Of a stretch of 64,000 nucleotides of DNA, positions 7,441-64,000 are shown one piece after another. This DNA is from a phage. Where the stretch lies: NCBI GenBank assembly GCA_024673055.1, contig GCA_024673055.1_4537.1, one strand, 5' to 3'. How positions within the stretch are numbered: the stretch's first letter is position 1; each line of letters starts with the position of its first letter. The notes beneath the pieces are model-generated. The model saw nothing but the letters and a program-made list of their open reading frames with translations, was not told the origin of the DNA and made no database searches. The translations under genes and the position numbers were made by a program.

Positions 7441-7444
7441 GTTC

Positions 7445-7502: not shown

Positions 7503-7512
7503 AGGAGGCGTT

Positions 7513-9809: not shown

Positions 9810-9815
9810 TAATCA

Positions 9816-9838: not shown

Positions 9839-9839
9839 A

Positions 9840-9868: not shown

Positions 9869-9895
9869 CTGCTAACCACAATAAAAGGAGGAAAT

Positions 9896-10517: not shown

Positions 10518-10605
10518 ACAATATGGAGCAGGAGAAGTTTATAAAATATTCAACCGAAAAGGTGATAAACTTTTACTAACTTTGACTATTCCAGAAACAA
10601 TGTGC

Positions 10606-10635
10606 AAGGCGGGGTTAGACCGCCTTTTGTTTTTT
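10606..10635 (+). terminator. intrinsic terminator
   Basis: AAGGCGG-GGTTAGA-CCGCCTT hairpin followed by TTTTGTTTTTT. Confidence 0.55.
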
Positions 10636-10705
10636 AAACACAATATCCCACCAGGGGAATATACAGCTAAAAAGGTGAGCAATATTGGCAGGTGAACCAA
10701 AAATA

Positions 10706-11260: not shown

Positions 11261-11296
11261 TATAAGATAACTATACTGAAAGAGAGAGGAGGTTTT

Positions 11297-50818: not shown

Positions 50819-51157
50819 GATAATCTCCTCTCATCGTTAGCCATCTTTCATGGCAATCATCAATCACCAACATCATACGATCAATCTTAAGGAATTACAA
50901 TCGAATTATCATAGGGGATTCCTATCAATTATCCTATATATACCGATTATTTTTGACACCCCACTCTTGTATAAAAAGTAACCCAAAATATCTACGGGGA
51001 GAGATTATTTCGACACACCCTGTTTCATGGCAATCATGGCAAGAATATCTAATAGAATCAATATGATATGGCAAAAATCATGGCGCATACGTAAGAAGTG
51101 CTTAACGCGAATTTTCGGGCCGTCAGGTCCACGCAGCGACAATTCCCAAATATCATG

Positions 51158-51181
51158 CGAATGAGAATAATTATCATTCGT
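51158..51181. repeat. palindromic operator-like box (Fur-box-like)
   Basis: GCGAATGAGAATAATTATCATTCG near-perfect inverted repeat. Confidence 0.45.
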
Positions 51182-51336
51182 ATTCAATGACTTATGCAAG
51201 GCTCATGCCAACATAGCGACAAGGTGGGCCACTTGATTATAAATCACACAAACACTTATTTATCAATGGTTTGGCAACTTCATCATATGACGGAACAATG
51301 TCAACTAATCCCGCCCATGACAGACGGACTATTATT

Positions 51337-51358
51337 TATATGAGAATGATTATTATTT
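51337..51358. repeat. palindromic operator-like box
   Basis: ATATGAGAATGATTATTATTTA, same core as 63829 repeats. Confidence 0.4.
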
Positions 51359-52247
51359 AAACGTTTATTAACATAAAAACCAGAATAAATCAAGAATTTT
51401 CTGATTTTATTTACGTTTAAGAGAACGTGCTCAACATCCTACCGGATCGCCGTTGGCAATCCTCGGGTATTTACGCCCCCATAATTATTGCCATGCTAAT
51501 TATTTCCTTATGTAATTACCACAATGATTATTGTTATTGCGCTAATGTTATGATCTTGGTAATTACATATAATGCTAATAATAAGCCAGCGCAATAAGTG
51601 TAAGCGTCATTACGCTTGCAATTATTGCAAGCTACGCAGTAACAAGAAATAACCATCACCGATGGTTATGATTGTTGGGGTGTAGTTGGCTTATTATTAG
51701 CTCGCTATGTGTCCGGCATAGCGTGCTAATGATAATCCTGGGAATGATTCGTTTTGTAATGATTTCATTCAGTCACTATTATGGCAATAGTTATTATTTT
51801 AATGGTTTCGTTTGTTATTGTTCGTTAGTTGGTTGTTTTGTCGTGTTATCGTTATCTTGCTTAGTATTCATCATGGTTTGATTGTTTGTCGTTATCAATC
51901 ATCTTGCTATTATTCCTTTGATTATGATTAGTTTGCTTATTGTTTTAGGTTGTTGGTTAGTTAGTTGTTGCGAACTATTATCAACATTATAGTTATGCAC
52001 TTATATTGCATAGATAAACATGGATAGATGATAATGGTTATCATTGCACTAGAAAGGAGGTAAAAGGGTGTTTTTGATGGTTTGTTGTTGGTTGTTGATC
52101 GATTTTAACCGCTATAAATGGCTCTCTAACAGCCTGTTACCCTGGGAGGTATGGTTATTCGTTTAATGGTTGATTAGCTCGATACCGCGATTTATTCAAT
52201 TTTGTTCTGTGTCGGTTTTTCATAGGCGAAAGCTATCAACATTGTTC

Positions 52248-52277
52248 GGGCAAAAAGAAAGGGCGCTTGGTGCGCCC
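52248..52277 (-). terminator. intrinsic terminator ending the small-gene array
   Basis: GGGCGC-ACCAA-GCGCCC hairpin (read on - strand) followed by TTTCTTTTT; same hairpin recurs at 52826 and 58301. Confidence 0.55.
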
Positions 52278-52293
52278 CTTGTTTTGTTGTCGC

Positions 52294-52713
52294 TTATAAC
52301 GCTTCATAGATTGAGTAGATCCGGTTTGCAAGGTCATTACGAAAGCGGAATTTTTCATCACGTTTGATCATCAGATCCTTAAAACCGCATTCTTTCAGTG
52401 CTTCATTAACTTTATGGCGGCAAACGTTCATATTATCCTGCGCGTCACCAATAAACTTATTACTGTGATGCATTGCTTTGATCTCTTCCTCCAATACCAG
52501 GGCAACTACACGGATCGGATCAAGCTGATATGCGGTAACATCCATGCGGCATTGTAAACGGCTTTTAACATCGTTTACCGGATACACTGCAACCTCTTCC
52601 CCGTCAACGTTCACGATAACCAATTTACCATCGATTTCGAAGCCTTTGGCGGCGCTACCGTGACAAAAAGCGTTATCGAAGGAGTAAGCTGGATTATTTG
52701 ATTTAATGTTCAT
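52294..52713 (-). CDS. hypothetical protein
   Basis: 139-aa track ORF. Confidence 0.5.
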   Translation of the reverse strand: MNIKSNNPAYSFDNAFCHGSAAKGFEIDGKLVIVNVDGEEVAVYPVNDVKSRLQCRMDVTAYQLDPIRVVALVLEEEIKAMHHSNKFIGDAQDNMNVCRHKVNEALKECGFKDLMIKRDEKFRFRNDLANRIYSIYEAL

Positions 52714-52825
52714 GGTGTTGTCCTTTGTTTCGTTTCGTTGTTTGCTGCCAGTGAGTTAAATATAATATAACGCCGATCCCCTGTCAATAGGGGATAGCGC
52801 ATTATTTACATTTCTTTACGTTAAA

Positions 52826-52842
52826 GGGCGCTTGGTGCGCCC
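52826..52842 (-). terminator. stem-loop (copy of GGGCGCTTGGTGCGCCC)
   Basis: Identical 17-bp hairpin downstream of 52853..53221. Confidence 0.4.
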
Positions 52843-52852
52843 TTGTATAATC

Positions 52853-53221
52853 TTACTTTGTGCTGTTGTAAACGTTATCGCGTTCAACCATCACGGCAAG
52901 GCGGATCAGTTGATCAGTTGTATCGCGTAAATTGTCGGGCCATGTTTTACTGTTCCAGCTATCCAGGTTTGACTGTATATAGGTTTCAATGGCTTGATCC
53001 ATATTATCAAACAAGTTTTCCTCCAGGCTCTCGGCTGTTTCACACTGGAAAGCATTAGCGACACTATTAATCAATAAGCAAGCCAGTAAATCAGCATTAC
53101 GCCAATTTTTACGGATAGTTTCATCTGTCAGATAACCAACGAGATTAACCTTTGCGCCAGTGGTTGACGTTGCGATCACTTCTTGTGCTTTTTCAAGTGC
53201 TTTAATTGCTGATTTGCTCAT
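52853..53221 (-). CDS. hypothetical protein
   Basis: 122-aa track ORF. Confidence 0.5.
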   Translation of the reverse strand: MSKSAIKALEKAQEVIATSTTGAKVNLVGYLTDETIRKNWRNADLLACLLINSVANAFQCETAESLEENLFDNMDQAIETYIQSNLDSWNSKTWPDNLRDTTDQLIRLAVMVERDNVYNSTK

Positions 53222-53299
53222 CTTCTTTTCCTCTTTGTGGGCTTGCTGTATTGCTCGCCCTACGCAATAACTATAAGTTAACAGGAGAAATAAAGCAAG

Positions 53300-53533
53300 C
53301 TATTTTTTATAAAATTTTTCTGCTGTGATATTCTTCCCAGTAGGCTTAACCACTTGCAAGATCTTATCATGTGCCGAACGTCCAAAAGAGTAAGATCCGT
53401 ACACGGTAAACCAATAATCCCCGTTCGGTTGAACGGTTACGGCGGCGTACGGTGTACCTCTTTCATTATCCCCGATAAAGTGAGAAACATTACCGTTAAC
53501 ATTTGGTTTAGTGCTTTTAATTTGTTCGATCAT
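53300..53533 (-). CDS. hypothetical protein
   Basis: 77-aa track ORF. Confidence 0.45.
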   Translation of the reverse strand: MIEQIKSTKPNVNGNVSHFIGDNERGTPYAAVTVQPNGDYWFTVYGSYSFGRSAHDKILQVVKPTGKNITAEKFYKK

Positions 53534-53551
53534 GATATAACTCCTAAATCA

Positions 53552-53610
53552 GGCGGGAAACATTCCCGCCCTACGTGATAAATGATAATGTAAGCGTGAT
53601 CCGGTGTCAA
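53552..53610 (-). promoter_or_regulatory. promoter + stem-loop cassette (PeSL-like)
   Basis: On - strand: TTGACA (53605-53610) ... -10 ... hairpin GGCGGGAA-tgt-TTCCCGCC (53552-53570) in leader. Confidence 0.5.
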
Positions 53611-53785
53611 TAGGTAGGATTGTAAAGATTTGATAGTTTATCTCTTTGATGTTTTGTTGTTTGATAGATGTTAGCTATCAATATATAGCGGGGTCGTCCG
53701 GTGATTATCTTCCCCTGCTCCCAGGTGCCGCCCGTTCAATAAGTATAACAAAAAACAGGACAAAAACAAGCCCTGTTTATTTATC

Positions 53786-53920
53786 TTAAAACCAGTTGCC
53801 AACCGTTTCCAATAGGTCACTGACTACCAGGACAACATTAATCAGCACATGTTCAACCATGAAAGGGATAAGCGCCAGCGTTGCTACTACGATCCCCATT
53901 GTGATGATTACCTTTCTCAT
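53786..53920 (-). CDS. small membrane protein (44 aa)
   Basis: ATG 53920; hydrophobic helix; below track cutoff. Confidence 0.3.
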   Translation of the reverse strand: MRKVIITMGIVVATLALIPFMVEHVLINVVLVVSDLLETVGNWF

Positions 53921-53922
53921 GG

Positions 53923-54207
53923 TTAGCGGCTTACGTAAGCTTTACCGTTTACGGTCATCGGTATGGCCTCAAGGTCTGGATCTTCCTTAAGGTCGCGTGC
54001 AAGCTCACCGCAGCGGATACCCTCGAATCCGTAGTACTCTGTTGTGCCGTCCTGGAAAGTTTTAGCGGCAAGGCATAGGCGATAATTAACGCCGATCCGG
54101 TTCACTGCGTTAATATCGGTTAACGTGATGGATTCTGGCAACTCTTTCGCCATTACAGGCGCGTTAATACCAACAACCAGGGCAACTACTGCGATCATCT
54201 TTTTCAT
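53923..54207 (-). CDS. secreted protein (signal peptide)
   Basis: MKKMIAVVALVVGINAPVMA signal peptide. Confidence 0.5.
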   Translation of the reverse strand: MKKMIAVVALVVGINAPVMAKELPESITLTDINAVNRIGVNYRLCLAAKTFQDGTTEYYGFEGIRCGELARDLKEDPDLEAIPMTVNGKAYVSR

Positions 54208-54262
54208 GCTTTCTAGCCTCTTCCTATTGCGTTTAATGGGGCGTTACCGCCGCGCTTATGGT

Positions 54263-54499
54263 TTATTGATTGATGTTATAATGAAAATTATTTTCTTCAA
54301 TAGCTTTTAAAATAAAAGCCGTGATCGCTTTCGTGTCTACTTGTTCGAACGTATCGGAATAGCACCAATAATGATCATCCCCTACTTTCGGCGGGTAAAC
54401 CTGGACAAGGAGATCGCCACCTGGTTGATCTATAAGCTCAACATGCAAGCCGGATGATTCAGCGGTTTTAACGGCGGTTAATACTGTTGCAATACTCAT
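54263..54499 (-). CDS. hypothetical protein
   Basis: 78-aa track ORF. Confidence 0.45.
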   Translation of the reverse strand: MSIATVLTAVKTAESSGLHVELIDQPGGDLLVQVYPPKVGDDHYWCYSDTFEQVDTKAITAFILKAIEENNFHYNINQ

Positions 54500-54543
54500 A
54501 ATCTTTTCCTTTCTGATGTGGGGCGTTGCCGCCCCTTTGTTGA

Positions 54544-54843
54544 TTAGATCGCTGTTTCCAGTAGTTCGGCTAACGTCTTACCGCCTGATAGTTGGTCTAA
54601 CGTTTGCTCTTCTGGCAAGAAATTAGCTGATATTAATCCGACTTGATTTCCTTTGTGCCAATTAGCTTGACGGATGATTCCATCCTTTAAAGATTTTACC
54701 GCCATTGTGCAACCGTCGCCAAATGATTCATTTTTATGATCCATCACTTCATAAGCGCCCAGCTTGCTACTGTTAGGCACCATTAACGCGAATACATCAC
54801 CAACAACCAGTTTTTCTACGGTAATAATAGCGATAGTTTCCAT
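54544..54843 (-). CDS. hypothetical protein
   Basis: 99-aa track ORF. Confidence 0.45.
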   Translation of the reverse strand: METIAIITVEKLVVGDVFALMVPNSSKLGAYEVMDHKNESFGDGCTMAVKSLKDGIIRQANWHKGNQVGLISANFLPEEQTLDQLSGGKTLAELLETAI

Positions 54844-54921
54844 TTTACTTTCCTCATTATCGGCGGCACCATTGCCGCCCTACGCATTAAATATAAGTTA
54901 TCTAAGAGATTAGATCAAGGA

Positions 54922-55113
54922 TTATTTTGTAAAGATTACAGCTTCATCAAAATTTTCAACATAGTAAGCAAGCTCTTCATTTGCTGCAACCATTCCTAAA
55001 AGTTGGCTATAAGATAAACCTTTGATCCCTTCCTCGTTGTTTAATGCTTCGATGATTTCATCAACGGGCGCAAAAAACATGTTATTCGATTCCAGATAGG
55101 TGATAGTTTTCAT
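54922..55113 (-). CDS. hypothetical protein
   Basis: 63-aa track ORF. Confidence 0.4.
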   Translation of the reverse strand: MKTITYLESNNMFFAPVDEIIEALNNEEGIKGLSYSQLLGMVAANEELAYYVENFDEAVIFTK

Positions 55114-55134
55114 AATGTTTACCTTTTACAGTGA

Positions 55135-55190
55135 GCGGCACCATTGCCGCCCTACGTGGTAAATATTAGCACACTGGCGATCTGTGTCAA
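55135..55190 (-). promoter_or_regulatory. promoter + stem-loop cassette (PeSL-like)
   Basis: - strand TTGACA (55185-55190), -10 near 55162-55167, hairpin GCGGCA-ATGG-TGCCGC (55135-55150). Confidence 0.55.
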
Positions 55191-55196
55191 TACTTT

Positions 55197-55583
55197 TTAT
55201 TCAATATAAATCAAATTATCTTCACCAATGTAAGCCGACACGTCCGGCATGAATTTAGCGGCATTTGTTAGGCGGTTCGCCGTGTTAGTGGTGTATATTT
55301 CAGGTCGATCCCAAAAGCCTACGCCGTGACTGTTACGGGTAAAATGTAAATCATTTCCGATCTGGTTGGCTGTTGCGCCGTCGCTCATTGCCTCAGAGAT
55401 AGCGGCAAGATTAGCATTAATAAAGGCTGTTACATCCTGGGCGATCCGTTTGTCCGCGCTAGGAGAAAAATCATAATCGTCTAAGTTATCAATAAAATTA
55501 CCTTCATGATCCCTTGCTGATTCAGCAAAAATAAAGGCTTCTTTATAGCCGTTGATGACTTCGTTAATGATTTCTGTTTTCAT
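55197..55583 (-). CDS. hypothetical protein
   Basis: 128-aa track ORF. Confidence 0.5.
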   Translation of the reverse strand: MKTEIINEVINGYKEAFIFAESARDHEGNFIDNLDDYDFSPSADKRIAQDVTAFINANLAAISEAMSDGATANQIGNDLHFTRNSHGVGFWDRPEIYTTNTANRLTNAAKFMPDVSAYIGEDNLIYIE

Positions 55584-55804
55584 GCTGTACGCTCGACAAT
55601 AATAATGGTTTGCGGGATCTCGTTTTCTGCAACTATCAAGGCTTTTTTCTGCGTAATAGATATTTTAACACGTTGTAAACTAGCGGTAAAGTCTTTCATT
55701 TCATTGTGTGCGGACTTCGTGCAATGCCAGATCTCAGGCTTACCAATTTGTAAGCCGCGTAAAAATTCCGTTTTTCCTATTTTGTTCGTGATCATTTGTT
55801 TCAC
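55580..55804 (-). CDS. hypothetical protein
   Basis: 74-aa track ORF. Confidence 0.45.
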   Translation of the reverse strand: MKQMITNKIGKTEFLRGLQIGKPEIWHCTKSAHNEMKDFTASLQRVKISITQKKALIVAENEIPQTIIIVERTA

Positions 55805-55805
55805 C

Positions 55806-55910
55806 TTAACCGATACCGTGGGAAGATAGGATCATGTTAGCCATAGTTGCAACCACTCCAACCGATAACGCCAGGCCCACTATTACAACCGTGAAAATTT
55901 TCTCTAACAT
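55806..55910 (-). CDS. small membrane protein (34 aa)
   Basis: ATG 55910; hydrophobic; below cutoff. Confidence 0.3.
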   Translation of the reverse strand: MLEKIFTVVIVGLALSVGVVATMANMILSSHGIG

Positions 55911-55928
55911 GATTCTACCCTCATTAAT

Positions 55929-55990
55929 GGGCGTTGCCTTATTGCCCCGCCCTACGAAATACATTCTACCCGATTTATAATTGTTGTCAA
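55929..55990 (-). promoter_or_regulatory. promoter + stem-loop cassette (degenerate)
   Basis: TTGACA at 55985-55990 (- strand); imperfect GC-rich hairpin. Confidence 0.4.
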
Positions 55991-55991
55991 A

Positions 55992-56261
55992 TTATTTTTT
56001 CAAGCTTGACCACTCAAAACACGGGGCGATCTCGTTAAAACTTGCACCCTGTAAAGCACATAATTTTTTAGCAATAGCCGCCGTAACCTGGCGTTGTACG
56101 CGCGGATCTGCTACTGATTGGAGAAAGTAGGCGGCTTTATATGTGATCATGCTTTCGCCTGTTTCCTTGTTAACATGATGCACTATTTTAGCCTTATCAT
56201 CTTTTACCAGGATGTAACCGGATTCGATGGCCTTGATTGCAACGTCCAATGATATTTTCAT
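55992..56261 (-). CDS. hypothetical protein
   Basis: 89-aa track ORF. Confidence 0.45.
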   Translation of the reverse strand: MKISLDVAIKAIESGYILVKDDKAKIVHHVNKETGESMITYKAAYFLQSVADPRVQRQVTAAIAKKLCALQGASFNEIAPCFEWSSLKK

Positions 56262-56308
56262 GATTTACCTCTTTATTGACGGCGGGGAATACTCCCCCGC
56301 CTCATTAA

Positions 56309-56479
56309 TTATTCTTCATCGTCGCTGTTATAGTATTCAATGCCATTTTCATCGGTTACGGTGATGTTAACGCCACCGATAGCAACACGATCACGGGCAA
56401 ACGTCATAGCTTCATTTAAATCTTCAGACCAAAAAATATTGTGACCTTTGCGCGATACATAAAACATAGTCGGGATCAT
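56309..56479 (-). CDS. hypothetical protein (56 aa)
   Basis: Track ORF 56309..56563 trimmed: N-terminal 28 codons are translation of the conserved cassette hairpin (YHIGRRNGP). Confidence 0.4.
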   Translation of the reverse strand: MIPTMFYVSRKGHNIFWSEDLNEAMTFARDRVAIGGVNITVTDENGIEYYNSDDEE

Positions 56480-56498
56480 GATTTGTTTCTCTTCTGTT

Positions 56499-56563
56499 GT
56501 GAGCGGTGGACCATTCCGCCGCCCTATGTGGTAAACTTTACTACGTTGTTTGCGTGCTGTCAA
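56499..56563 (-). promoter_or_regulatory. promoter + stem-loop cassette
   Basis: TTGACA 56558-56563 (- strand); hairpin GGCGGTGGACCATTCCGCCGCC. Confidence 0.5.
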
Positions 56564-56564
56564 A

Positions 56565-56849
56565 TTATTTTTTAATGTTTTGCCCTACAAAATTAATCAT
56601 TTCCTTAAGCTGTCTCTCTGTCATGATCGTACCTGGTAACTCTTCTTTAATTTCTTCCGGTAAATAGATATTACCGCGCCAGGTTAACAAACAACCGTTT
56701 TGATCTTCGCAGATAGAATAAGAAAACATCCACTCGCAATCATTTTCAAGCTCCCAAAAACACAAAAAGTCTTCTTTCCCTAAGTTTTCAACGGTTAAAC
56801 ATAATCCGCGACGTGCTGCATAATTAGTTAGGCTTTTTGTAATTTTCAT
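56565..56849 (-). CDS. hypothetical protein
   Basis: 94-aa track ORF. Confidence 0.45.
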   Translation of the reverse strand: MKITKSLTNYAARRGLCLTVENLGKEDFLCFWELENDCEWMFSYSICEDQNGCLLTWRGNIYLPEEIKEELPGTIMTERQLKEMINFVGQNIKK

Positions 56850-56870
56850 GATTTTTCTCTCTTCTTGTGA

Positions 56871-56926
56871 GCGGCACCATTGCCGCCCTACAAGATATAT
56901 ATTATCAGACTAGGCGGACTTGTCAA
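56871..56926 (-). promoter_or_regulatory. promoter + stem-loop cassette
   Basis: Hairpin GCGGCA-CCAT-TGCCGC 56871-56886; TTGACA 56921-56926 (- strand). Confidence 0.55.
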
Positions 56927-56927
56927 A

Positions 56928-57038
56928 CTATTTTTTCTTTTTCTTTGCTTCCAACCGTCTAAAGTTACGGCTTGACTTATTGCGCAAGGCGCTTAGATCG
57001 TCGTACCCTTTCCATGCTTGCATATCTTTCGGATTCAT
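56928..57038 (-). CDS. small basic protein (36 aa)
   Basis: AAGGGGATAAC then ATG 57038; lysine-rich C-terminus. Confidence 0.3.
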   Translation of the reverse strand: MNPKDMQAWKGYDDLSALRNKSSRNFRRLEAKKKKK

Positions 57039-57047
57039 GTTATCCCC

Positions 57048-57209
57048 TTACTTGTTAGCCGGATCATATACCAGGACCGCGCCGCTTGCTTTCACGCTTT
57101 CCGCTTCATAGTTGCGCAGATCGTTTTCTGTAAGATTGAGCGCGATCACTTCCTCGATCTCAACGCCAGCGGCAAGGGCGATCTCTTTGATAATATCTGT
57201 TGTTTTCAT
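57048..57209 (-). CDS. small hypothetical protein (53 aa)
   Basis: ATG 57209; no internal stops. Confidence 0.3.
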   Translation of the reverse strand: MKTTDIIKEIALAAGVEIEEVIALNLTENDLRNYEAESVKASGAVLVYDPANK

Positions 57210-57219
57210 GGTGTGCACC

Positions 57220-57339
57220 TTATAAGATGATTAATAAGATAGTGACAACGAAAGCGATTATACTGATGGCAAATGTCATCTTTTTACCTTCGGATACTGC
57301 CGGATTCTCTACCGTGTATTCTACTGTGTACTTGCTCAT
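57220..57339 (-). CDS. small membrane protein (39 aa)
   Basis: GAGGATTACACG then ATG 57339; C-terminal TM helix. Confidence 0.3.
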   Translation of the reverse strand: MSKYTVEYTVENPAVSEGKKMTFAISIIAFVVTILLIIL

Positions 57340-57362
57340 CGTGTAATCCTCTCGTTTGCTTT

Positions 57363-57420
57363 GGGAACTATTCCCGCCGCCCTATGAATTAAATATACAC
57401 TATCTCAAAATGATTGCAAG
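57363..57420 (-). promoter_or_regulatory. promoter + stem-loop cassette (TTGCAA -35 variant)
   Basis: Hairpin GGGAACTATTCCC; TTGCAA at 57415-57420 (- strand). Confidence 0.4.
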
Positions 57421-57436
57421 CCTTTTTCTAAATTAT

Positions 57437-57721
57437 TTATGCAGTAAACAAACCATCATTTACAACGGCGGCGATGATCTCCCGTGCCATTGATTCAGGG
57501 AAAGGGGCGCTATAATCCTGGCTTGTCTCATCGGTATCGGTGATCCAATGATAAGCTAACGAGTAAAAGCCTTTACTAACTGTTTTCAGTGAGATGATGA
57601 TCACTCGGTCAAGCTTATTGGTGAATGTTGCCGTTAATGTGTTACCCTCCTGCGTCATGTTGGACAAGTAAGCTGGATCATTAATCAGGGAAAACATTAG
57701 CACGGTGTTAGCTTTACTCAT
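57437..57721 (-). CDS. hypothetical protein
   Basis: Track ORF trimmed to second ATG (57721) downstream of cassette hairpin. Confidence 0.45.
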   Translation of the reverse strand: MSKANTVLMFSLINDPAYLSNMTQEGNTLTATFTNKLDRVIIISLKTVSKGFYSLAYHWITDTDETSQDYSAPFPESMAREIIAAVVNDGLFTA

Positions 57722-57741
57722 GATTGCATCCTCAAAGGGGC

Positions 57742-57795
57742 GCGGCACCATTGCCGCCCTACACGATAACTATAACACAATGTAAAACAGGATCA
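57742..57795 (-). promoter_or_regulatory. promoter + stem-loop cassette (TTGATC -35 variant)
   Basis: Hairpin GCGGCA-CCAT-TGCCGC 57742-57757. Confidence 0.4.
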
Positions 57796-57999
57796 ACCTT
57801 TATTTTTCCACGGTGTTAGTTTGTTAATCATTGGTGATAAATAGCGTTTACCAACGTAAAACAGCACGCCAACTGATGCAACGGCGGCGACCTCATGCAT
57901 AGCCGACGGGAAACGGGTATCATAATAAGATCCAATAATAGCAATAGCGGCAACGGCTGCAACGTCGATAATGATTTTCTCTTGTTTTGCGGTGATCAT
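57793..57999 (-). CDS. small membrane protein
   Basis: 68 aa; two hydrophobic helices. Confidence 0.45.
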   Translation of the reverse strand: MITAKQEKIIIDVAAVAAIAIIGSYYDTRFPSAMHEVAAVASVGVLFYVGKRYLSPMINKLTPWKNKG

Positions 58000-58021
58000 A
58001 ATATTTACCTTTTTGTATGGT

Positions 58022-58078
58022 GGGGAACTATTCCCCGCCTGATGTAATACAGTTTAACAGGTCCGGTTATGGTGTCAA
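58022..58078 (-). promoter_or_regulatory. promoter + stem-loop cassette
   Basis: Hairpin GGGGAACTATTCCCC; TTGACA 58073-58078 (- strand). Confidence 0.5.
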
Positions 58079-58084
58079 CCACTT

Positions 58085-58270
58085 TTAAAGATATTTTATG
58101 CTAATGACGTTTTCAGGTTTTACCTTGTTATGATGTGCATCAACATAGATTAAACCATCGTCAGAAAAGCCCAGGATCACGCCCTGCGCGATAAAACCGT
58201 ACTCGTCACGGTAACGCACGGCTATTTTTAATGTTGCGTTGTAGGCTGTTTTAAGCTCGTTTAAAGTCAT
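58085..58270 (-). CDS. hypothetical protein
   Basis: 61-aa track ORF. Confidence 0.4.
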   Translation of the reverse strand: MTLNELKTAYNATLKIAVRYRDEYGFIAQGVILGFSDDGLIYVDAHHNKVKPENVISIKYL

Positions 58271-58300
58271 TTTTGTTTATCCTCTACATGTAAAAAGAAA

Positions 58301-58317
58301 GGGCGCTTGATGCGCCC
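58301..58317 (-). terminator. stem-loop (third copy of GGGCGCTTGATGCGCCC) with U-tract
   Basis: Hairpin followed on - strand by TTTCTTTTT. Confidence 0.45.
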
Positions 58318-58325
58318 TTGTTATG

Positions 58326-58472
58326 TTAATCCTCTAAATCCATCCAATTATATTTGTCACTCTTCCCGCGCTTTGTTTTATTGCGCTTGTCGCCTTTGCG
58401 GATCACTTCCTCGTTCCAGGCCTTGCGGATCTTGGAAGATTGGATTTTTTCTGCGCGATTAGATGTATTCAT
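58326..58472 (-). CDS. small basic protein (48 aa)
   Basis: ATG 58472 downstream of cassette; lysine/arginine-rich. Confidence 0.3.
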   Translation of the reverse strand: MNTSNRAEKIQSSKIRKAWNEEVIRKGDKRNKTKRGKSDKYNWMDLED

Positions 58473-58492
58473 TTTGTTTCCTCTTTATATGA

Positions 58493-58545
58493 GCGGCACC
58501 ATTGCCGCTATATTATTAATTTAAACTTTTTTGTAAAATTGTCAA
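58493..58545 (-). promoter_or_regulatory. promoter + stem-loop cassette
   Basis: Hairpin GCGGCA-CCAT-TGCCGC 58493-58508; TTGACA 58540-58545. Confidence 0.5.
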
Positions 58546-58551
58546 GGTTTA

Positions 58552-58905
58552 TCATTCATAAGAGCAAGCAAGGATCACGCCTGCAATATAAAGCCAATAA
58601 TTTTCCCTTTCTCGTTGGATTTTATCATCGCTGCTATTCTCTTTAATGTATCCCCAGGATGTTAACAAGCGATCAATTTCCCAATATTCGAAAGCGATAT
58701 TAATATCTGATGGCAAACCTTGTAACCATGATGCAAGTGCTTTAACAATACTATAATTAAAACGTGATTGGTTATCAGGGTACCAGTACTCGGAATTAAA
58801 ACGGCGCATCAATTCCGCGATCTTCTCTTTTTCGGTTGTAATACCGTAATCATTAAAATCGATAGCGGCAAGGATGTACTCTTTAATTGCATTTTGTGCT
58901 TTCAT
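58552..58905 (-). CDS. hypothetical protein
   Basis: 117-aa track ORF. Confidence 0.5.
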   Translation of the reverse strand: MKAQNAIKEYILAAIDFNDYGITTEKEKIAELMRRFNSEYWYPDNQSRFNYSIVKALASWLQGLPSDINIAFEYWEIDRLLTSWGYIKENSSDDKIQRERENYWLYIAGVILACSYE

Positions 58906-58923
58906 GGTTTTTCTCTCTTTTTA

Positions 58924-58980
58924 GCGGGAACTATTCCCGCCCTACGTGTAACAGTTTACTGAAAATTAAATCCGTGTCAA
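58924..58980 (-). promoter_or_regulatory. promoter + stem-loop cassette
   Basis: Hairpin GCGGGAA-CTA-TTCCCGC; TTGACA 58975-58980. Confidence 0.5.
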
Positions 58981-58983
58981 GCT

Positions 58984-59205
58984 TTATTTTGTTACTACCA
59001 TTTGGTACCCTGTCTCAATGTTAGTAAACACTGTTATCCCGTCCTGGCGTTCACTCATTAACATACAAGGCGCTAACATCCTTTCTACTGCCTTGCACTC
59101 GTTGTAAACGGCGGTTATATCTCCTGCGGCCTTGTCTTCTGTGGTGAATGTATCGTTTACGTAAACTTGACCAGCAACAACGGTGACAATAGCGAAAGTG
59201 ATCAT
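58984..59205 (-). CDS. hypothetical protein
   Basis: 73-aa track ORF; shares first 5 codons (MITFA) and upstream 20 nt with next gene. Confidence 0.45.
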   Translation of the reverse strand: MITFAIVTVVAGQVYVNDTFTTEDKAAGDITAVYNECKAVERMLAPCMLMSERQDGITVFTNIETGYQMVVTK

Positions 59206-59279
59206 GGTGTTTCCTTGTCAGTAGTGGTTTCTCTTCTCTATAGCGCCCATTATAAGGCGCTATAACGAAAAGTCAACGA

Positions 59280-59447
59280 TTATTTTTTAAGGCTTAAAGT
59301 GCCTAGCTTATCAGCGTGACGCAGACCAGGGAAGATCCATTTTCCTGATTCATCTTTTACAGGTGCTTTAAACGTAGCGCCCAGGTTGGCGGCGTTAACT
59401 TTACGGGCAACGTTGCGAGCGGCTTCACGGGTAGCGAAAGTGATCAT
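59280..59447 (-). CDS. small hypothetical protein (55 aa)
   Basis: ATG 59447; N-terminus MITFA duplicated from 58984..59205. Confidence 0.35.
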   Translation of the reverse strand: MITFATREAARNVARKVNAANLGATFKAPVKDESGKWIFPGLRHADKLGTLSLKK

Positions 59448-59472
59448 GGTGTTTTCCTCTTCTCTTTGTTAG

Positions 59473-59558
59473 GCGGTGGACCATTCCGCCGCCTTGATGT
59501 AATACAGTTTACTTTATTTTATTAAGATTGCAAGCGGTTTTATGAAATAATTGTCAAA
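59473..59558 (-). promoter_or_regulatory. promoter + stem-loop cassette
   Basis: Hairpin GGCGGTGGACCATTCCGCCGCC; TTGACA 59553-59558. Confidence 0.5.
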
Positions 59559-59755
59559 GTAAAATCATAAGACTGATTTAATTTATATTGTACTTTATTG
59601 CCGTAGTAGTCACCTTTACGTAAAGATCCGCGAATACCTATCACATCCTTTACATCTTTAAGATTTTTTACGCCTGTAATGTCTTTATTGAAATACTCGT
59701 CATCTGAAAATAAAACTTGACTTGCATTTTTTAACAGTGTGCGGATATTGGCCAT
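59540..59755 (-). CDS. hypothetical protein
   Basis: 71-aa track ORF. Confidence 0.4.
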   Translation of the reverse strand: MANIRTLLKNASQVLFSDDEYFNKDITGVKNLKDVKDVIGIRGSLRKGDYYGNKVQYKLNQSYDFTLTIIS

Positions 59756-59780
59756 CGTAATAATCTCTCTTCTGTTGTGA

Positions 59781-59836
59781 GCGGCACCATTGCCGCCCTA
59801 CGTAATACAGTTTACTCTTTTTCTTTCCGGTGTCAA
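59781..59836 (-). promoter_or_regulatory. promoter + stem-loop cassette
   Basis: Hairpin GCGGCA-CCAT-TGCCGC 59781-59796; TTGACA 59831-59836. Confidence 0.55.
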
Positions 59837-59845
59837 CAATCTTTT

Positions 59846-60073
59846 TCAGATTAATTCGTCCAGGCATAACAGGCGATCAACGTTGAGATCGGTTAGGCTG
59901 ATGGTTGGCACCTGGTAGGATTCGATGTACTCAACGCTTGCATATTCCCCAAAATTAGCAACAGCCCACTTATTCAAGATCTCACATACATCATTAATCT
60001 TTTTGTTTGTTACAACGGCAATGACCTGGGAAGTGCCAACGGTGCCAGATACGCGAACAATATTGATAGCCAT
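59846..60073 (-). CDS. hypothetical protein
   Basis: 75-aa track ORF. Confidence 0.45.
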   Translation of the reverse strand: MAINIVRVSGTVGTSQVIAVVTNKKINDVCEILNKWAVANFGEYASVEYIESYQVPTISLTDLNVDRLLCLDELI

Positions 60074-60085
60074 AATCTTTAATCT

Positions 60086-60154
60086 CTCTGTTTTGGCGGG
60101 AAACCACTTCCCGCCCTATGTGATACATCTTACACTAATTTTAAACGTTGTCAA
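60086..60154 (-). promoter_or_regulatory. promoter + stem-loop cassette
   Basis: Hairpin GGCGGGAA-ACCAC-TTCCCGCC 60086-60106; TTGACA 60149-60154. Confidence 0.55.
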
Positions 60155-60163
60155 CTGTTTTTA

Positions 60164-60403
60164 TTACATTCCAACCATCGCGGCACGGATCGCAGTAGTG
60201 CTATATTTGAAACCGTCTGGCGTTTTATCTTGTCCAGTTTGTTCCAGAAAAAGCATCATATCCCGCGCCGCATCATTACGATTAGCATTAGCGTTAATAA
60301 AATCTTGGGCCAACCGGTATAACGATTCATCGTTATTAATCCAAAGGCTTACATTCCAATGATTTTTGTTTTTGTGACCGTTGTACATTTTAGATTTAGC
60401 CAT
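60164..60403 (-). CDS. hypothetical protein
   Basis: 79-aa track ORF. Confidence 0.45.
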   Translation of the reverse strand: MAKSKMYNGHKNKNHWNVSLWINNDESLYRLAQDFINANANRNDAARDMMLFLEQTGQDKTPDGFKYSTTAIRAAMVGM

Positions 60404-60427
60404 GATTTTTCTCTCTTTTTCAGTGAG

Positions 60428-60486
60428 GCGGGAAGTGTTCCCGCTCTCTATGTAATATAGTTTACTCTTTCTATTCGTGCTGTCAA
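60428..60486 (-). promoter_or_regulatory. promoter + stem-loop cassette
   Basis: Hairpin GCGGGAAGTGTTCCCGC; TTGACA 60481-60486. Confidence 0.5.
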
Positions 60487-60492
60487 TGCTTT

Positions 60493-60876
60493 TTATAAAT
60501 CTTTTTTACGTTTTACATCGCTCGCATGACTGTATACAGTGATCCCATTGTCACGGCAAAAACGGGAAAGGTAGGCATAATTTGAAAACTCTTTACCTTC
60601 CAGGTTGATAACCTTGCTAAACTCTTCTAGGGCAACGGTATCAAAATGATCACCATAGCCATATTGAAACGGAACGTTAACCACCTCGATCAGTTTACCG
60701 CCGATCTCAACGTCAACCATTAAAGAAAAATATGTGTTACCGTAGGACCGTTGAAACCAGCGACGGGCGCTAATATGCACCGCCTCAATGCTGGATAATT
60801 CAATTTTAGCCGTGTTAGCCATGGTAGCATAAGCGGAAACATTAATATTAATAGCCATGATGATAACCTTTTTCAT
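60493..60876 (-). CDS. hypothetical protein
   Basis: 127-aa track ORF. Confidence 0.5.
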   Translation of the reverse strand: MKKVIIMAININVSAYATMANTAKIELSSIEAVHISARRWFQRSYGNTYFSLMVDVEIGGKLIEVVNVPFQYGYGDHFDTVALEEFSKVINLEGKEFSNYAYLSRFCRDNGITVYSHASDVKRKKDL

Positions 60877-60880
60877 TGTT

Positions 60881-60940
60881 GGCGGGAAACCACTTCCCGC
60901 CTTATGTGGTAAACTATACCAGAAGTTTAAACAGTGTCAA
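60881..60940 (-). promoter_or_regulatory. promoter + stem-loop cassette
   Basis: Hairpin GGCGGGAAACCACTTCCCGCC; TTGACA 60935-60940. Confidence 0.5.
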
Positions 60941-60946
60941 CCGTTT

Positions 60947-61309
60947 TTATTCGTAAATTTTACCGCTTTCGGCCCATACCATAACGCGGCGCATACTATC
61001 CCAAGTGTTTTGATCCAAGTTTAAGCCGTGCAACTCTTCGGTACTTCCCAGACCAGGTACCGCCTTGTTGTAAGTTGCATATAAGCGCCCTTGATACTCA
61101 TACGCCAGGGTGAGATCCGTTTGAATCATCTTTTTAAGCATAGCATTAAGCATCATATTAGCGGCATGTTGATCACGTTTTAGCGGTAACATATCAATAA
61201 GGGCGCGATAAGCTGAAACATGAATATCAACCGTTTCACGTGGTAAATTTTTCATATCATCGCGGAAAGATACCAGATTAAACATGATAGTATTGATTTG
61301 CTTGCTCAT
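60947..61309 (-). CDS. hypothetical protein
   Basis: 120-aa track ORF. Confidence 0.5.
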   Translation of the reverse strand: MSKQINTIMFNLVSFRDDMKNLPRETVDIHVSAYRALIDMLPLKRDQHAANMMLNAMLKKMIQTDLTLAYEYQGRLYATYNKAVPGLGSTEELHGLNLDQNTWDSMRRVMVWAESGKIYE

Positions 61310-61330
61310 TGTGTTACCCTTTTTTGTTTT

Positions 61331-61391
61331 GGCGGTGGACCATTCCGCCGCCCTATGTGATACATCTTATCAGATTAAAAAACGTTGTCAA
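61331..61391 (-). promoter_or_regulatory. promoter + stem-loop cassette
   Basis: Hairpin GGCGGTGGACCATTCCGCCGCC; TTGACA 61386-61391. Confidence 0.5.
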
Positions 61392-61400
61392 GAATATTTT

Positions 61401-61496
61401 TTAGAAAATAATAGCCGCTACTACAACCCAAAATGGAACGGCGAAAATGATAGCGTTAATCGTTCCAACCGTCAAGCTATTTTCTTTATTAATCAT
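61401..61496 (-). CDS. small membrane protein (31 aa)
   Basis: ATG 61496; hydrophobic C-terminal half. Confidence 0.3.
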   Translation of the reverse strand: MINKENSLTVGTINAIIFAVPFWVVVAAIIF

Positions 61497-61525
61497 TGCA
61501 AACCTCTTGCATAATTTCACTATGA

Positions 61526-61582
61526 GCGGCACCATTGCCGCCCTACGTGGTAAATATTATGCCAGTGGCGGCGATATGTCAA
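61526..61582 (-). promoter_or_regulatory. promoter + stem-loop cassette
   Basis: Hairpin GCGGCA-CCAT-TGCCGC 61526-61541; TTGACA 61577-61582. Confidence 0.55.
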
Positions 61583-62145
61583 AGACTATTTTCAAAGTTT
61601 TCTAGCGCGATCCTTTTTTCTTCCTCTGTCGGCTGATAATCAGGAAAAGCATCAACACACAACAACGGCGGGATCTCTTCGTACTCTTCCTCTTCCGTTG
61701 TCTCCTCGTCTTCCTCCTGGGCTATGGCTGCAATTTTGGCTAATTTTCTTTCAGCTTGAATCAATTTACCATCAAGTACGTTTTTTGCCATGTTGTAAGC
61801 GGTCCAGGTGATGCGCTTACTTTCCAGGGCTTGATCGAGCGCCGCTATCTTGCTGGGGTATTCATCCAGGACACGAAAAGCCGGATCAATTTTGTACAAA
61901 GGATTATCTTTCGCGCCGTCGCTCGCATCTTCCGCACTGGATAAATCAGCGTTACCATTTGCCAGCCAACCAGGGCGCACATAACGCGCTTTTACGTTGC
62001 CGTTACTACGTGCTAATCTGTTACCTATTTGCTCACCGCTATATCCCGTGGATTCATCGATAAGATGATCGGGAATGATGCGCGGATCATCTGCTTCATG
62101 TTTTACCCAAGACTGGATCACATATTCGCGGCCCATATTAACCAC
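61579..62145 (-). CDS. hypothetical protein with acidic C-terminal region
   Basis: 188-aa track ORF. Confidence 0.5.
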   Translation of the reverse strand: MVNMGREYVIQSWVKHEADDPRIIPDHLIDESTGYSGEQIGNRLARSNGNVKARYVRPGWLANGNADLSSAEDASDGAKDNPLYKIDPAFRVLDEYPSKIAALDQALESKRITWTAYNMAKNVLDGKLIQAERKLAKIAAIAQEEDEETTEEEEYEEIPPLLCVDAFPDYQPTEEEKRIALENFENSL

Positions 62146-62395
62146 CTTTTTTCAACAATTGGCATACTTTAAAAAGACTTGCTGAATCCTTGCAAGGGTA
62201 GAAAGATGTACGATAATCACGTACGCCAACCTTGCGGATCTCGATGTTTTCGCATGTTGTTTGATCAAAGATATTTATTTCATCCCGCCCCCTTATATAA
62301 ACATAGTGGGGATGTATTAACGCATATTTTGCTAATCTGTAAAAAGCGTTATCTTTGAACGCGATCACGTGACCTTTTAATTTGATGTAAAACAT
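62138..62395 (-). CDS. hypothetical protein
   Basis: 85-aa track ORF. Confidence 0.45.
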   Translation of the reverse strand: MFYIKLKGHVIAFKDNAFYRLAKYALIHPHYVYIRGRDEINIFDQTTCENIEIRKVGVRDYRTSFYPCKDSASLFKVCQLLKKGG

Positions 62396-62413
62396 TCTAC
62401 CACCTTACAAATA

Positions 62414-62468
62414 GCGGGAACTATTCCCGCTTTATGTAACATATTAACAAATTAGTCGTTAATGTCAA
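62414..62468 (-). promoter_or_regulatory. promoter + stem-loop cassette
   Basis: Hairpin GCGGGAA-CTA-TTCCCGC; TTGACA 62463-62468. Confidence 0.5.
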
Positions 62469-62471
62469 ACC

Positions 62472-62744
62472 TTAAAGCAAAAACGCTACATCTTGCGCTT
62501 TTAGTGTAGTGTCGATCATTTTCGGGCTTTTATAATCCACAAAGCGCGCGGTTTTTTCAATAGCAAAACCGAGATAATCTTGCTTGTTGAAATTACATTC
62601 TTTCTTAAATGTTTCCCGTGCAATGGCAATCGCTGCGTCCAGGGATAAACGCCCGTCAATATTGATATTAGCGAAAGATCCGCCACCGCTCATAGGTTTA
62701 CCAGTTGTGCCAGCTACGATCATTGTTGCGCTATATGATGCCAT
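62472..62744 (-). CDS. hypothetical protein
   Basis: Track ORF 62472..62801 trimmed: first 19 codons (MYHIGRRNGP...) are the translated cassette hairpin. Confidence 0.45.
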   Translation of the reverse strand: MASYSATMIVAGTTGKPMSGGGSFANINIDGRLSLDAAIAIARETFKKECNFNKQDYLGFAIEKTARFVDYKSPKMIDTTLKAQDVAFLL

Positions 62745-62766
62745 GATGATAATCTCTCTGTTGTGA

Positions 62767-62827
62767 GCGGCTGGACCATTCCGCCGCCCTATGTGATACA
62801 TCTTATCAGGTTGTTGTTTGTTGTCAA
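62767..62827 (-). promoter_or_regulatory. promoter + stem-loop cassette
   Basis: Hairpin GGCTGGACCATTCCGCCGCC; TTGACA 62822-62827. Confidence 0.5.
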
Positions 62828-62833
62828 TACTTT

Positions 62834-63031
62834 TTATTCTATCCCTGCAATTTGATTAACGCGCTTGCATTTTGTAGCGTGCTGGTCTTCTGTAATGACT
62901 CCCATTTCTAACAAGGAATCAATAAAAGATAAAACCGTTTCATGATCATCCTGGGGATGACTGAACTCAGTAAAACCATTTACCACGACGCTGATTTGTC
63001 CTGCTTTCGCTACTATGTGCAATGTTGCCAT
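62834..63031 (-). CDS. hypothetical protein
   Basis: 65-aa track ORF; first (most upstream) gene of the array. Confidence 0.4.
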   Translation of the reverse strand: MATLHIVAKAGQISVVVNGFTEFSHPQDDHETVLSFIDSLLEMGVITEDQHATKCKRVNQIAGIE

Positions 63032-63605: not shown

Positions 63606-63828
63606 TTACATACAGAAGAGGAAGCGCCACCCCACGGCGTAAAGGCGGGGCTAACATACCAGGGCGCTGGTTGGAAGGTTGATCGCCGGTAGGCTGGGCG
63701 CTATATATTTGTAAAGAAATGTAAAGATAAAATAATCGCTTGCTTTCCTGGCTGGATCTGTTATTCTTATTACATGGCGAGGGGACACGGGAGCGCGAGA
63801 CAAACACCGCCCCTGCGCGTCATTCTCT

Positions 63829-63937
63829 AAATGAGAATGATTATCATTTACCTTATCAAATAAGAATCAATCTCATTTATAAACCTAAATGCGAATCATT
63901 ATCATTTGCATTTCCACATGAGAACTCTTCTCATTCT
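63829..63937. repeat. four tandem palindromic 22-bp boxes at 29-bp periodicity (iteron/operator-like, Fur-box-like)
   Basis: AAATGAGAATGATTATCATTTA (63829), AAATAAGAATCAATCTCATTTA (63858), AAATGCGAATCATTATCATTTG (63887), ACATGAGAACTCTTCTCATTCT (63916). Confidence 0.55.
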
Positions 63938-64000
63938 CACCTGCATAAAAATTTTTGTAAACTTTAAATTTTGGTTTTGTACTTTCATTTTTGTAAAAGC

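Follow-up and report, generated by a model that had tools for sequence, protein, structure and literature searches.

Why should a phage place nearly the same promoter and nearly the same stem-loop in front of almost every small gene of one block of its genome? The question is raised by a stretch of phage DNA of 64,000 nucleotides (nt) (GenBank assembly GCA_024673055.1, contig GCA_024673055.1_4537.1), hereafter the window. Its minus strand carries, at 52294..63031, an array of 34 open reading frames (ORFs) of 31–185 amino acids (aa; median 76) in ~23 transcription units, with a cassette of promoter, GC-rich hairpin and Shine-Dalgarno (SD) sequence recurring between them. The best overall explanation, to which we give a probability of about 0.7, is that this is an immediate-early cassette block in which the repeats mediate the shuffling of genes and each early messenger RNA (mRNA) bears a hairpin at its 5′ end. 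That the block consists of cassettes and is shuffled through them is, judging from the sequences compared, quite likely; that the leader hairpin acts specifically as a stabiliser is a possibility we put forward tentatively.

The cassettes can be defined with some precision. The exact pattern TTGACA-N28-34-TAGGGCGG occurs 11 times, always on the minus strand and between 53,566 and 62,827, where shuffled sequences give an expectation of 0.00; TAGGGCGG alone is found 14 times (0.53 expected), again only on the minus strand within the block. Tolerating mismatches raises the count to 23 sigma70-type promoters on the minus strand of 52.3–63.0 kb, and 21 of these are followed by a box, CAYRTAGGGCGG, which opens a GC hairpin of 7–9 bp (−8 to −17 kcal/mol). 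Seventeen units combine a perfect TTGACA, a spacer of 16–17 nt and a TAnnnT in which T1, A2 and T6 are invariant. A promoter scan returned 56 sites against 30.4 expected, and the 23 that scored highest (10 or more of 12) include 20 on the array strand. Upstream of the −35 element lies an A-tract (1.1–1.5 bits at five positions between −10 and −5) that carries the stop codon of the preceding gene, the stops falling within 14 nt upstream. Downstream of the −10 element comes a discriminator-like GTATCAC, TTACCAC or GTATTAC and then RTAGGGCGG, whose G-run opens the hairpin. The core stem begins 9–11 nt past the −10 in most units, and does so across 12 phages; where flanking bases add pairs, the fold begins a few nt before it. 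Past the hairpin the leader is unpaired and A/G-rich, typically CACAACAGAAGAGAGA, with an SD-like A/G-rich tract before the ATG, which in most units is reached after 15–27 nt (in cassette 14 after only 8); the spacers between genes separated by a cassette measure 70–97 nt. The two remaining promoters have another type of stem, which lies across the −10 (59239–59264) or across the −35 (52776–52795).

The dense array of promoter and stem-loop units claimed in a preliminary description of this DNA is thus confirmed, with amendments in detail. The hairpin that it placed in every 5′ leader is found in 21 of the 23 units; the stem of 6–8 bp that it drew after the box is in fact one of 7–9 bp that includes the GGGCGG of the box and is closed by varied loops (ATGG, GTGGT, TAG, TGT, CAC); and the one to three ORFs that it assigned to each cassette turned out to be one to four.

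An indication of what the repeats do comes from comparing the block with nine relatives, which are not independent samples. About 15 distinct indel or replacement events were found within the 10.7 kb, most of which amount to one gene plus one cassette. Two of them have left a chimeric cassette. The phage vB_EcoM-P3322 (P3322) and four others are without the gene at 55113..54922 and have a cassette that joins the 5′ half of unit 19 to the 3′ half of unit 20 (54897/55135), the crossover lying inside a shared 22-nt stretch, GTAGGGCGGCAATGGTGCCGC; anhysbys and two others are without the gene at 53533..53300 and show a clean chimera (53273/53568) with its crossover in CGTAGGGCG. Further junctions lie between SD and ATG at 60851–60888 and 59212–59225, at each of which five relatives have an extra gene; in the segment of stop codon, A-rich tract and −35 at 61409–61428; at 57047/57049, between adjacent genes, where three relatives have an extra cassette with a 279-bp gene; between two copies of a terminator hairpin (52282/52823, 25-nt overlap); and between two promoter-less hairpins (54251/54520, 14-nt overlap). 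The overlaps at junctions range overall from 14 to 38 nt, the boundaries at 53568, 54893–54897 and 56255 have been used again by independent events, and 18 of the 26 boundaries are in intergenic DNA, which makes up 22% of the block. Chimeric cassettes and overlaps of this kind are, at the level of the aligned genomes, direct signatures of recombination between repeats. Modular shuffling like that ascribed to the promoter-early stem-loop (PeSL) cassettes of T4-type phages, with which the preliminary description had equated the units, is supported by the position of these indel junctions inside cassettes and by the two chimeras. The neighbouring ORFs that start at 59205 and 59447 (minus strand) begin with an identical 15 nt, ATGATCACTTTCGCT, and it is between them that one of the extra genes of five relatives lies, implying that the homology used in exchange can reach into the first codons.

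The block is 95–98% identical to the matching region of Phapecoctavirus genomes such as P3322, Mt1B1_P17 and tuntematon, and its source is a Phapecoctavirus of the subfamily Stephanstirmvirinae, that is, a phAPEC8-like Escherichia coli myovirus of ~150 kb. Mt1B1_P17 has a direct terminal repeat of 328 bp (1–328 = 150875–151202 of its record), which maps by homology to ~51,050–51,377 of the window, in a region of ~1.6 kb without annotated genes. It follows that the window crosses the physical end of the genome and that the array ends ~0.9 kb from it. By the same homology the array is transcribed towards the terminus, and no coding DNA precedes it at the left end; in phi92 an analogous array likewise adjoins the terminal repeat. 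The higher GC content that had been suspected for the block is borne out, yet small (41.4% against 37.9% in 1–33 kb and 39.4% in 33–52 kb, only ~3 points); since coding (41.3%) and intergenic DNA (42.0%) are alike in this respect, the excess is real and modest and is not due to the hairpins.

In the complete genome of P3322 (151,674 bp) the units are confined to the homologous 9.4 kb (49.7–59.1 kb) and one isolated copy, the other early regions being tightly packed operons without cassettes. The isolated cassette, far from the array at 81360 on the plus strand (TTGACA-16-TAAGAT, GTATCACATGAAGCGGGGAATAGTTCCCCGC), stands ahead of a gene for an alx/TerC-like membrane protein and looks like a moron that was inserted together with its cassette. 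The same box and hairpins stand ahead of partly different genes in phi92 and alia (Justusliebigvirus), and the Vequintavirus FV3, which is of rV5 type and belongs to another subfamily, possesses an equivalent small-gene array at 3960–11620 of the locus examined. There the geometry is kept (TTGACA, 16–17 nt, TAnnnT, hairpin 9–10 nt later) with stems of mostly other sequences (GGGGCAAACGTCTTGCCCC, GGCGGGAAAACTTCCCGCC) that are without the TAGGGCGG box, although two units do carry it; the place of the stem with respect to the promoter is thus conserved more than its sequence. In about 100 T5-like phages a 27-nt stretch, AATATTTATCACGTAGGGCGGCAATG, nearly identical to −10 and box, lies in the pre-early region of the left terminal repeat and is followed by a different GGCGG...CCGCC hairpin (in cott162, for example, at 5290–5330); with a blastn E value of only 4e-3, and missed by the covariance model described below, it is a lead only. 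Matches to the cassette unit are restricted to Stephanstirmvirinae, Vequintavirinae and, in part, T5-like phages. A scan of viral contigs for TTGACA-N28-34-TAGGGCGG returned single chance matches only, among the matches listed, and is uninformative. A host-derived repeat, whether of the repetitive extragenic palindrome (REP) kind or from a prophage, was also considered and rejected, with 0 matches in 5,426 E. coli genomes.

Whether the hairpin as such is under selection can be asked of the units themselves. Compared pairwise, the 21 units have a mean identity of 0.84 in the −35, 0.70 in the −10 and 0.69 in the box, with the spacer at a background value of 0.29–0.35, and types of −10/discriminator and of hairpin are combined mosaically among units; this punctate conservation and mosaic combination indicate that functional positions are kept alike by selection or short-patch conversion, and speak against recent duplication of whole units. 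All 12 leaders for which a structure was predicted fold into the same 5′ hairpin (z −2.1 to −4.2) with SD and AUG unpaired. When the units are aligned with MAFFT, the loop or the 5′ arm serves as anchor and the result does not reflect structure; the covariance model that the preliminary description had proposed was hence built from one gap-free hairpin class. It finds 17 matches in the window, none of them on the plus strand and none outside 53,236–62,795, and in a complete relative genome it matches only in the homologous block. Paired cells make up 94.2% of its alignment and 89.1% of shuffled ones, of which 0 in 500 attain the observed value; one pair changes from C-G to G-C in nine distinct sequences and another alternates between G-U, G-C and A-U. 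Variation of the upper stem is put into insert columns by the model and was analysed separately: the 12 phages have 26 distinct inner segments (CA..TG, GAA..TTC, GGAA..TTCC, GAAA..TTTC, GGAAA..TTTCC, CGGA..TCCA and others), which form 47 outer-in pairs, as compared with the 16.6 that shuffling leads one to expect. Of 76 distinct leaders, 55 fold better in the sense than in the antisense orientation, these being related sequences for which the P value is not independent, and this bias lends mild support to an RNA on the coding strand.

We propose that the block is a hyperplastic immediate-early region built from self-contained expression cassettes. In each, a near-consensus sigma70 promoter would be read by the unmodified host RNA polymerase; the transcript would open with the conserved start region CAYRTAGGGCGG, fold its 7–9 bp GC hairpin at roughly +4 to +25, and run through an unpaired A/G-rich leader with the SD into one to four ORFan genes. 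The comparison of relatives shows repeated cassettes, terminators and promoter-less hairpins to be homology patches through which modules of gene and cassette are exchanged, gained and lost with the neighbouring genes left intact. The fixed distance from the −10, the place of the hairpin inside its own mRNA and the missing U-tract together favour a 5′-terminal RNA structure over a terminator, and starts predicted 6–8 nt past the −10 would leave 3–5 unpaired nt at the 5′ end before the hairpin. So placed, it would most likely guard the short early mRNAs against decay that depends on the 5′ end (RppH, RNase E), and it may also give one regulator a shared handle. Joint post-transcriptional control by way of the leader hairpin, as the preliminary description suggested, is plausible and the reading that we prefer. 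An accessible 5′ monophosphate lets RNase E cleave much faster than a base-paired end does (PMC3997798), and the 5′ stem-loops of ompA and papA are, as that paper recounts, the classic stabilisers (Emory, Bouvet and Belasco 1992).

One can go further and ask from what the early mRNAs would need shielding. The Srd protein of phage T4 stimulates RNase E. The genome paper of rV5 describes an Srd-like protein, and stimulation of RNase E by such a protein is a speculative rationale for the protection of early messages. A wider conjecture, in our estimate rather improbable, is that box and hairpin form a dedicated cis-acting immediate-early RNA module across Stephanstirmvirinae, Vequintavirinae and, in part, T5-like phages, one that would mark mRNAs as ‘self’, for example through a shield from phage-stimulated RNase E decay, or else would hand one factor a switch for silencing them all, and at the same time supply the homology for plug-and-play gene transfer.

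Several observations weigh against the proposal of shuffled cassettes with a protective 5′ hairpin. The literature searched holds no transcript data for this phage group, and the start sites are predicted only. An unpaired end of 3–5 nt is at the upper edge of what 5′-hairpin protection tolerates. The stems across the −10 or −35 (59276, 52787) cannot form in their own RNA, and together with the three promoter-less hairpins they fit a role at the DNA level or in read-through RNA better. Covariation in the core stem is thin, as 4 of the 8 modelled pairs (GCGG/CCGC) never vary; the lower stem and the box are conserved in sequence beyond what structure alone explains, and for the box this may point to a specific binder. 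As to the shuffling, selection for viability partly explains why breakpoints are intergenic, and the relatives compared are not independent of one another.

The hint of a binder leads to the alternative in which box and hairpin are the recognition site of a single factor: an RNA-binding repressor or nuclease, an antitermination-type RNA, or a DNA roadblock at +4 to +25. An element common to twenty leaders does resemble a regulon, CAYRTAGGGCGG and the A-A/T-T top of the stem are more conserved in sequence than pairing requires, and the same box recurs in phi92-type phages with different cargo genes as well as, within the 27 nt of −10 and box, in the T5-like pre-early region. FV3, however, keeps the position and not the sequence of box or stem, which favours a structural role, and the gap between the GGCGG and CCGCC halves varies from 8 to 12 nt, which argues against a rigid dimeric DNA operator. 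A search of Rfam over 51–64 kb gave no match at E ≤ 1, and no candidate for the factor was identified. We consider such a site unlikely, though worth keeping in mind. The box was also inspected by eye for a sigma70-dependent pause element or a MotA-box-like activator site, and no convincing consensus match was seen.

The next alternative takes the function of PeSLs literally. These cassettes were described in the T4-type phages RB49/phi1, PST/T4 and nt-1/KVP40 (Arbiol et al. 2010, PMC2839356; Comeau et al. 2014, PMC4122927); those papers regard the stem-loop, which takes various positions relative to the promoter, as terminating or attenuating transcription from upstream, and the crossovers that they mapped lie in the loop, between SD and −10 and in the AT-rich part. 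Applied here, each hairpin would attenuate or terminate transcription from the cassette upstream and so insulate the modules, preventing the summed overexpression from 20 promoters. The units do lie in intergenic DNA after each stop codon, the two stems over −10 or −35 and the three promoter-less hairpins can act only on read-through RNA or on DNA, and the stem-loops of RB49 and phi1 are described as having terminated or attenuated transcription effectively when assayed with reporters. A T-run, however, follows none of the 21 leader hairpins, which run into an A/G-rich tail (CACAACAGAAGAG); the block ends transcription with canonical terminators, the only ones flagged on the array strand, at 58319, 53778 and 52280; a terminating hairpin would sit equally in its own transcript and could stop it; and a terminator needs no fixed distance from the −10. 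Insulation by termination is for these reasons an improbable account of the leader hairpins.

Two further alternatives fare worse. If the hairpin were a passenger with no selected function beyond the promoter, in a cassette that was simply duplicated again and again, the identical strings of box and hairpin in several units would be readily understood; the spacers at background identity between conserved −35, −10 and box, the compensating changes in the stem, the mosaic combinations of −10/discriminator and hairpin, and the continuation of the architecture with different stems in another subfamily make this very improbable. The last concerns the 20-mer ATAGGGCGGCAATGGTGCCG: hairpin-type promoters are used by the virion RNA polymerase of phage N4 and a depositor has placed a promoter feature on the 20-mer, but that it is a phage-specific promoter is scarcely credible given that it always lies 8–10 nt past a near-perfect sigma70 promoter and ~20 nt before the ATG, that the annotation of the complete relative P3322 lists no RNA polymerase gene, and that PHIRE reports any over-represented 20-mer.

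That feature belongs to the GenBank record of phAPEC8, which labels the sigma70 part “putative host dependent promoter determined with MEME” and the 20-mer “putative promoter determined with PHIRE”. The repeat was thus noticed already in 2012, but read as a promoter; from its position, what phAPEC8-type records call a ‘PHIRE promoter’ is most likely a hairpin in the transcribed leader, which would correct the annotation. In the literature searched, which did not cover the genome papers of phAPEC8 and PVP-SE1, there is no analysis of the cassettes, of the hairpin or of a role in shuffling in phAPEC8, phi92 or rV5-type phages.

The cargo of the array gives few clues of its own. Pfam matched two of 29 array ORFs, both to families of unknown function, and every PHROG match of the array ORFs is likewise to ‘unknown function’, so that neither database yields a functional clue. 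The 79-aa ORF at 60403..60164 (minus strand) belongs to DUF7249, and the 48-aa ORF at 58472..58326 (minus strand) to Phage_1_1, the family of T7 early gene 1.1 (E 5e-13); by homology these two show that early genes are shared with unrelated phages. Just upstream of the array, between divergent units, a palindrome of ~21 bp, AAATGAGAATnATTCTCATTT, is repeated four times at a period of 29 nt (63827–63950). It resembles a Fur box, with its best match to GATAATGATAATCATTATC at 63833–63851 (3 mismatches), and the cluster is kept in relatives, where it is annotated merely as ‘repeat_region’; it could be an operator, an iteron cluster or an iron-responsive site. The units, promoter-less hairpins and terminators of the block are collected in the table.

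Table. Promoter-hairpin cassettes, promoter-less hairpins and terminators of the array (window coordinates; promoters are written as −35 element, spacer length in nt and −10 element).
Feature	Position	Strand	Promoter	Box	Hairpin or stem	ATG	Remarks
Cassette 1	62765..62827	-	TTGACA-16-TAAGAT	CACATAGGGCGG	GGGCGGCGGAATGGTCCAGCCGCTC	62744	
Cassette 2	62413..62468	-	TTGACA-16-TAATAT	CATAAAGCGG (degenerate)	AGCGGGAATAGTTCCCGCT	62395	2 ORFs
Cassette 3	61524..61582	-	TTGACA-17-TAATAT	CACGTAGGGCGG	GGGCGGCAATGGTGCCGCTC	61496	
Cassette 4	61331..61391	-	TTGACA-16-TAAGAT	CACATAGGGCGG	GGCGGCGGAATGGTCCACCGCC	61309	
Cassette 5	60881..60940	-	TTGACA-16-TATAGT	CACATAAGGCGG	GGCGGGAAGTGGTTTCCCGCC	60858 (probable)	121-aa product in P3322 annotation
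Cassette 6	60425..60486	-	TTGACA-16-TAAACT		GAGAGCGGGAACACTTCCCGCCTC	60403	
Cassette 7	60095..60154	-	TTGACA-16-TAAGAT	CACATAGGGCGG	GGCGGGAAGTGGTTTCCCGCC	60073	
Cassette 8	59777..59836	-	TTGACA-16-TAAACT	TACGTAGGGCGG	GGGCGGCAATGGTGCCGCTC	59755	
Cassette 9	59471..59533	-	TTGCAA-16-TAAACT		AGGCGGCGGAATGGTCCACCGCCT	59447	
Cassette 10	59239..59276	-	TTGACT-16-TATAAT		9-bp stem TATAGCGCC/GGCGCTATA, −10 in loop	59205	different subclass
Cassette 11	58923..58980	-	TTGACA-16-TAAACT	CACGTAGGGCGG	GGCGGGAATAGTTCCCGCT	58905	
Cassette 12	58492..58545	-	TTGACA-16-TAAATT		AGCGGCAATGGTGCCGCT	58472	T7 gene 1.1 homologue
Cassette 13	58019..58078	-	TTGACA-16-TAAACT		GGCGGGGAATAGTTCCCCACC	57999	
Cassette 14	57739..57796	-	TTGATC-16-TATAGT	GTGTAGGGCGG	GGGCGGCAATGGTGCCGCGCC	57721	
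Cassette 15	57358..57419	-	TTGCAA-16-TATATT	TTCATAGGGCGG	weaker hairpin	57339	3 ORFs
Cassette 16	56865..56926	-	TTGACA-16-TAATAT	TTGTAGGGCGG	GGGCGGCAATGGTGCCGCTC	56849	
Cassette 17	56501..56563	-	TTGACA-17-TAAAGT	CACATAGGGCGG	GGGCGGCGGAATGGTCCACCGCTC	56479	
Cassette 18	55929..55990	-	TTGACA-16-TAGAAT	TTCGTAGGGCGG	GGGCGGGGCAATAAGGCAACGCCC	55910	3 ORFs
Cassette 19	55131..55190	-	TTGACA-16-TAATAT	CACGTAGGGCGG	GGGCGGCAATGGTGCCGCTC	55113	cassette and gene missing in 5 relatives
Cassette 20	54862..54918	-	TTGATC-17-TATATT	TGCGTAGGGCGG	GGCGGCAATGGTGCCGCC	54843	4 ORFs, to terminator at 53778
Cassette 21	53551..53610	-	TTGACA-17-TATCAT	CACGTAGGGCGG	GGGCGGGAATGTTTCCCGCCT	53533	cassette and gene missing in 3 relatives
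Cassette 22	53237..53298	-	TTGCTT-17-TATAGT	TGCGTAGGGCGA	GGGCGAGCAATACAGCAAGCCC	53221	
Cassette 23	52759..52795	-	TTGACA-17-TATATT		stem ATCCCCT/AGGGGAT, −35 in loop; no leader hairpin	52713	different subclass
Promoter-less hairpin	56281..56301	-			GGCGGGGGAGTATTCCCCGCC	56261	~20 nt before ATG
Promoter-less hairpin	54520..54535	-			GGGGCGGCAACGCCCC	54499	partner of 54240-54257 hairpin in anhysbys deletion
Promoter-less hairpin	54240..54257	-			GCGGCGGTAACGCCCC	54207	
Canonical intrinsic terminator	58299..58319	-			AAGGGCGCATCAAGCGCCCTT		T-run follows
Canonical intrinsic terminator	53753..53778	-					T-run follows; insertion hot spot in 4 relatives
Terminator-hairpin copy	52824..52844	-			AAGGGCGCACCAAGCGCCCTT		without T-run; recombination partner of 52258-52280
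Canonical intrinsic terminator	52258..52280	-					closes array

If confirmed, these findings would extend the idea behind PeSLs, regulatory cassettes that double as recombination linkers, to an unrelated group of coliphages that is popular in therapy, and would suggest a general and convergent way for a fast-evolving ‘ORFanage’ to stay expressible. Some 20 mRNAs with a leader hairpin at a fixed place are also a clean natural experiment on 5′-terminal structure in phage early messages, and the cassettes offer compact and portable parts, strong promoter and leader, together with predictable safe insertion sites for phage engineering.

Among known systems, integron cassettes with their attC hairpins are similar in being arrays of small promiscuous ORFs with imperfect palindromes between them that are gained and lost cassette by cassette; here, however, there is no integrase, every cassette has its own promoter, and the junctions fit general homologous or microhomology recombination, as opposed to site-specific exchange. 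The morons of lambdoid phages (promoter-gene-terminator) are likewise autonomous accessory-gene units inserted between other genes, but no flanking conserved repeat is thought to move them, whereas in the present array the repeat is the junction. With the 5′ stabilisers of ompA and papA the leaders share a stable hairpin a few nt from the predicted 5′ end and an unpaired ribosome-binding site; they differ in that the hairpin is repeated and conserved in sequence on ~20 phage mRNAs, that its 5′ end is a predicted one, and that 3–5 unpaired nt may exceed what allows full protection.

The closest parallel is the one that the preliminary description had drawn, with PeSLs, and it holds in part. The anatomy agrees (an AT-rich tract with the upstream stop codon, an early promoter of sigma70 consensus, a GC-rich stem-loop, SD and ATG), both kinds of cassette stand ahead of ORFans in hyperplastic regions (HPRs), and in both the indel junctions of close relatives fall inside the cassette at several positions. 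The lineage, the variable position of the stem and, judged by sequence, the terminator feature do not agree. The cassettes studied here belong to the unrelated Stephanstirmvirinae and Vequintavirinae and to no T4-type genome; in contrast to PeSLs with their five positional subclasses, they are dominated by a single architecture whose stem has a fixed place downstream of the likely start site; and they have a conserved box and no U-tract, which makes a terminator role doubtful. The density that had seemed striking is not unusual as a number, some 22 units per genome compared with 51–52 PeSLs in RB49 and phi1; what is unusual is that they are packed into one terminal block of 10.7 kb, where PeSLs are spread over several HPRs. 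As the phage is a Phapecoctavirus and not T4-type, its cassettes are best regarded as analogues of PeSLs rather than as their homologues.

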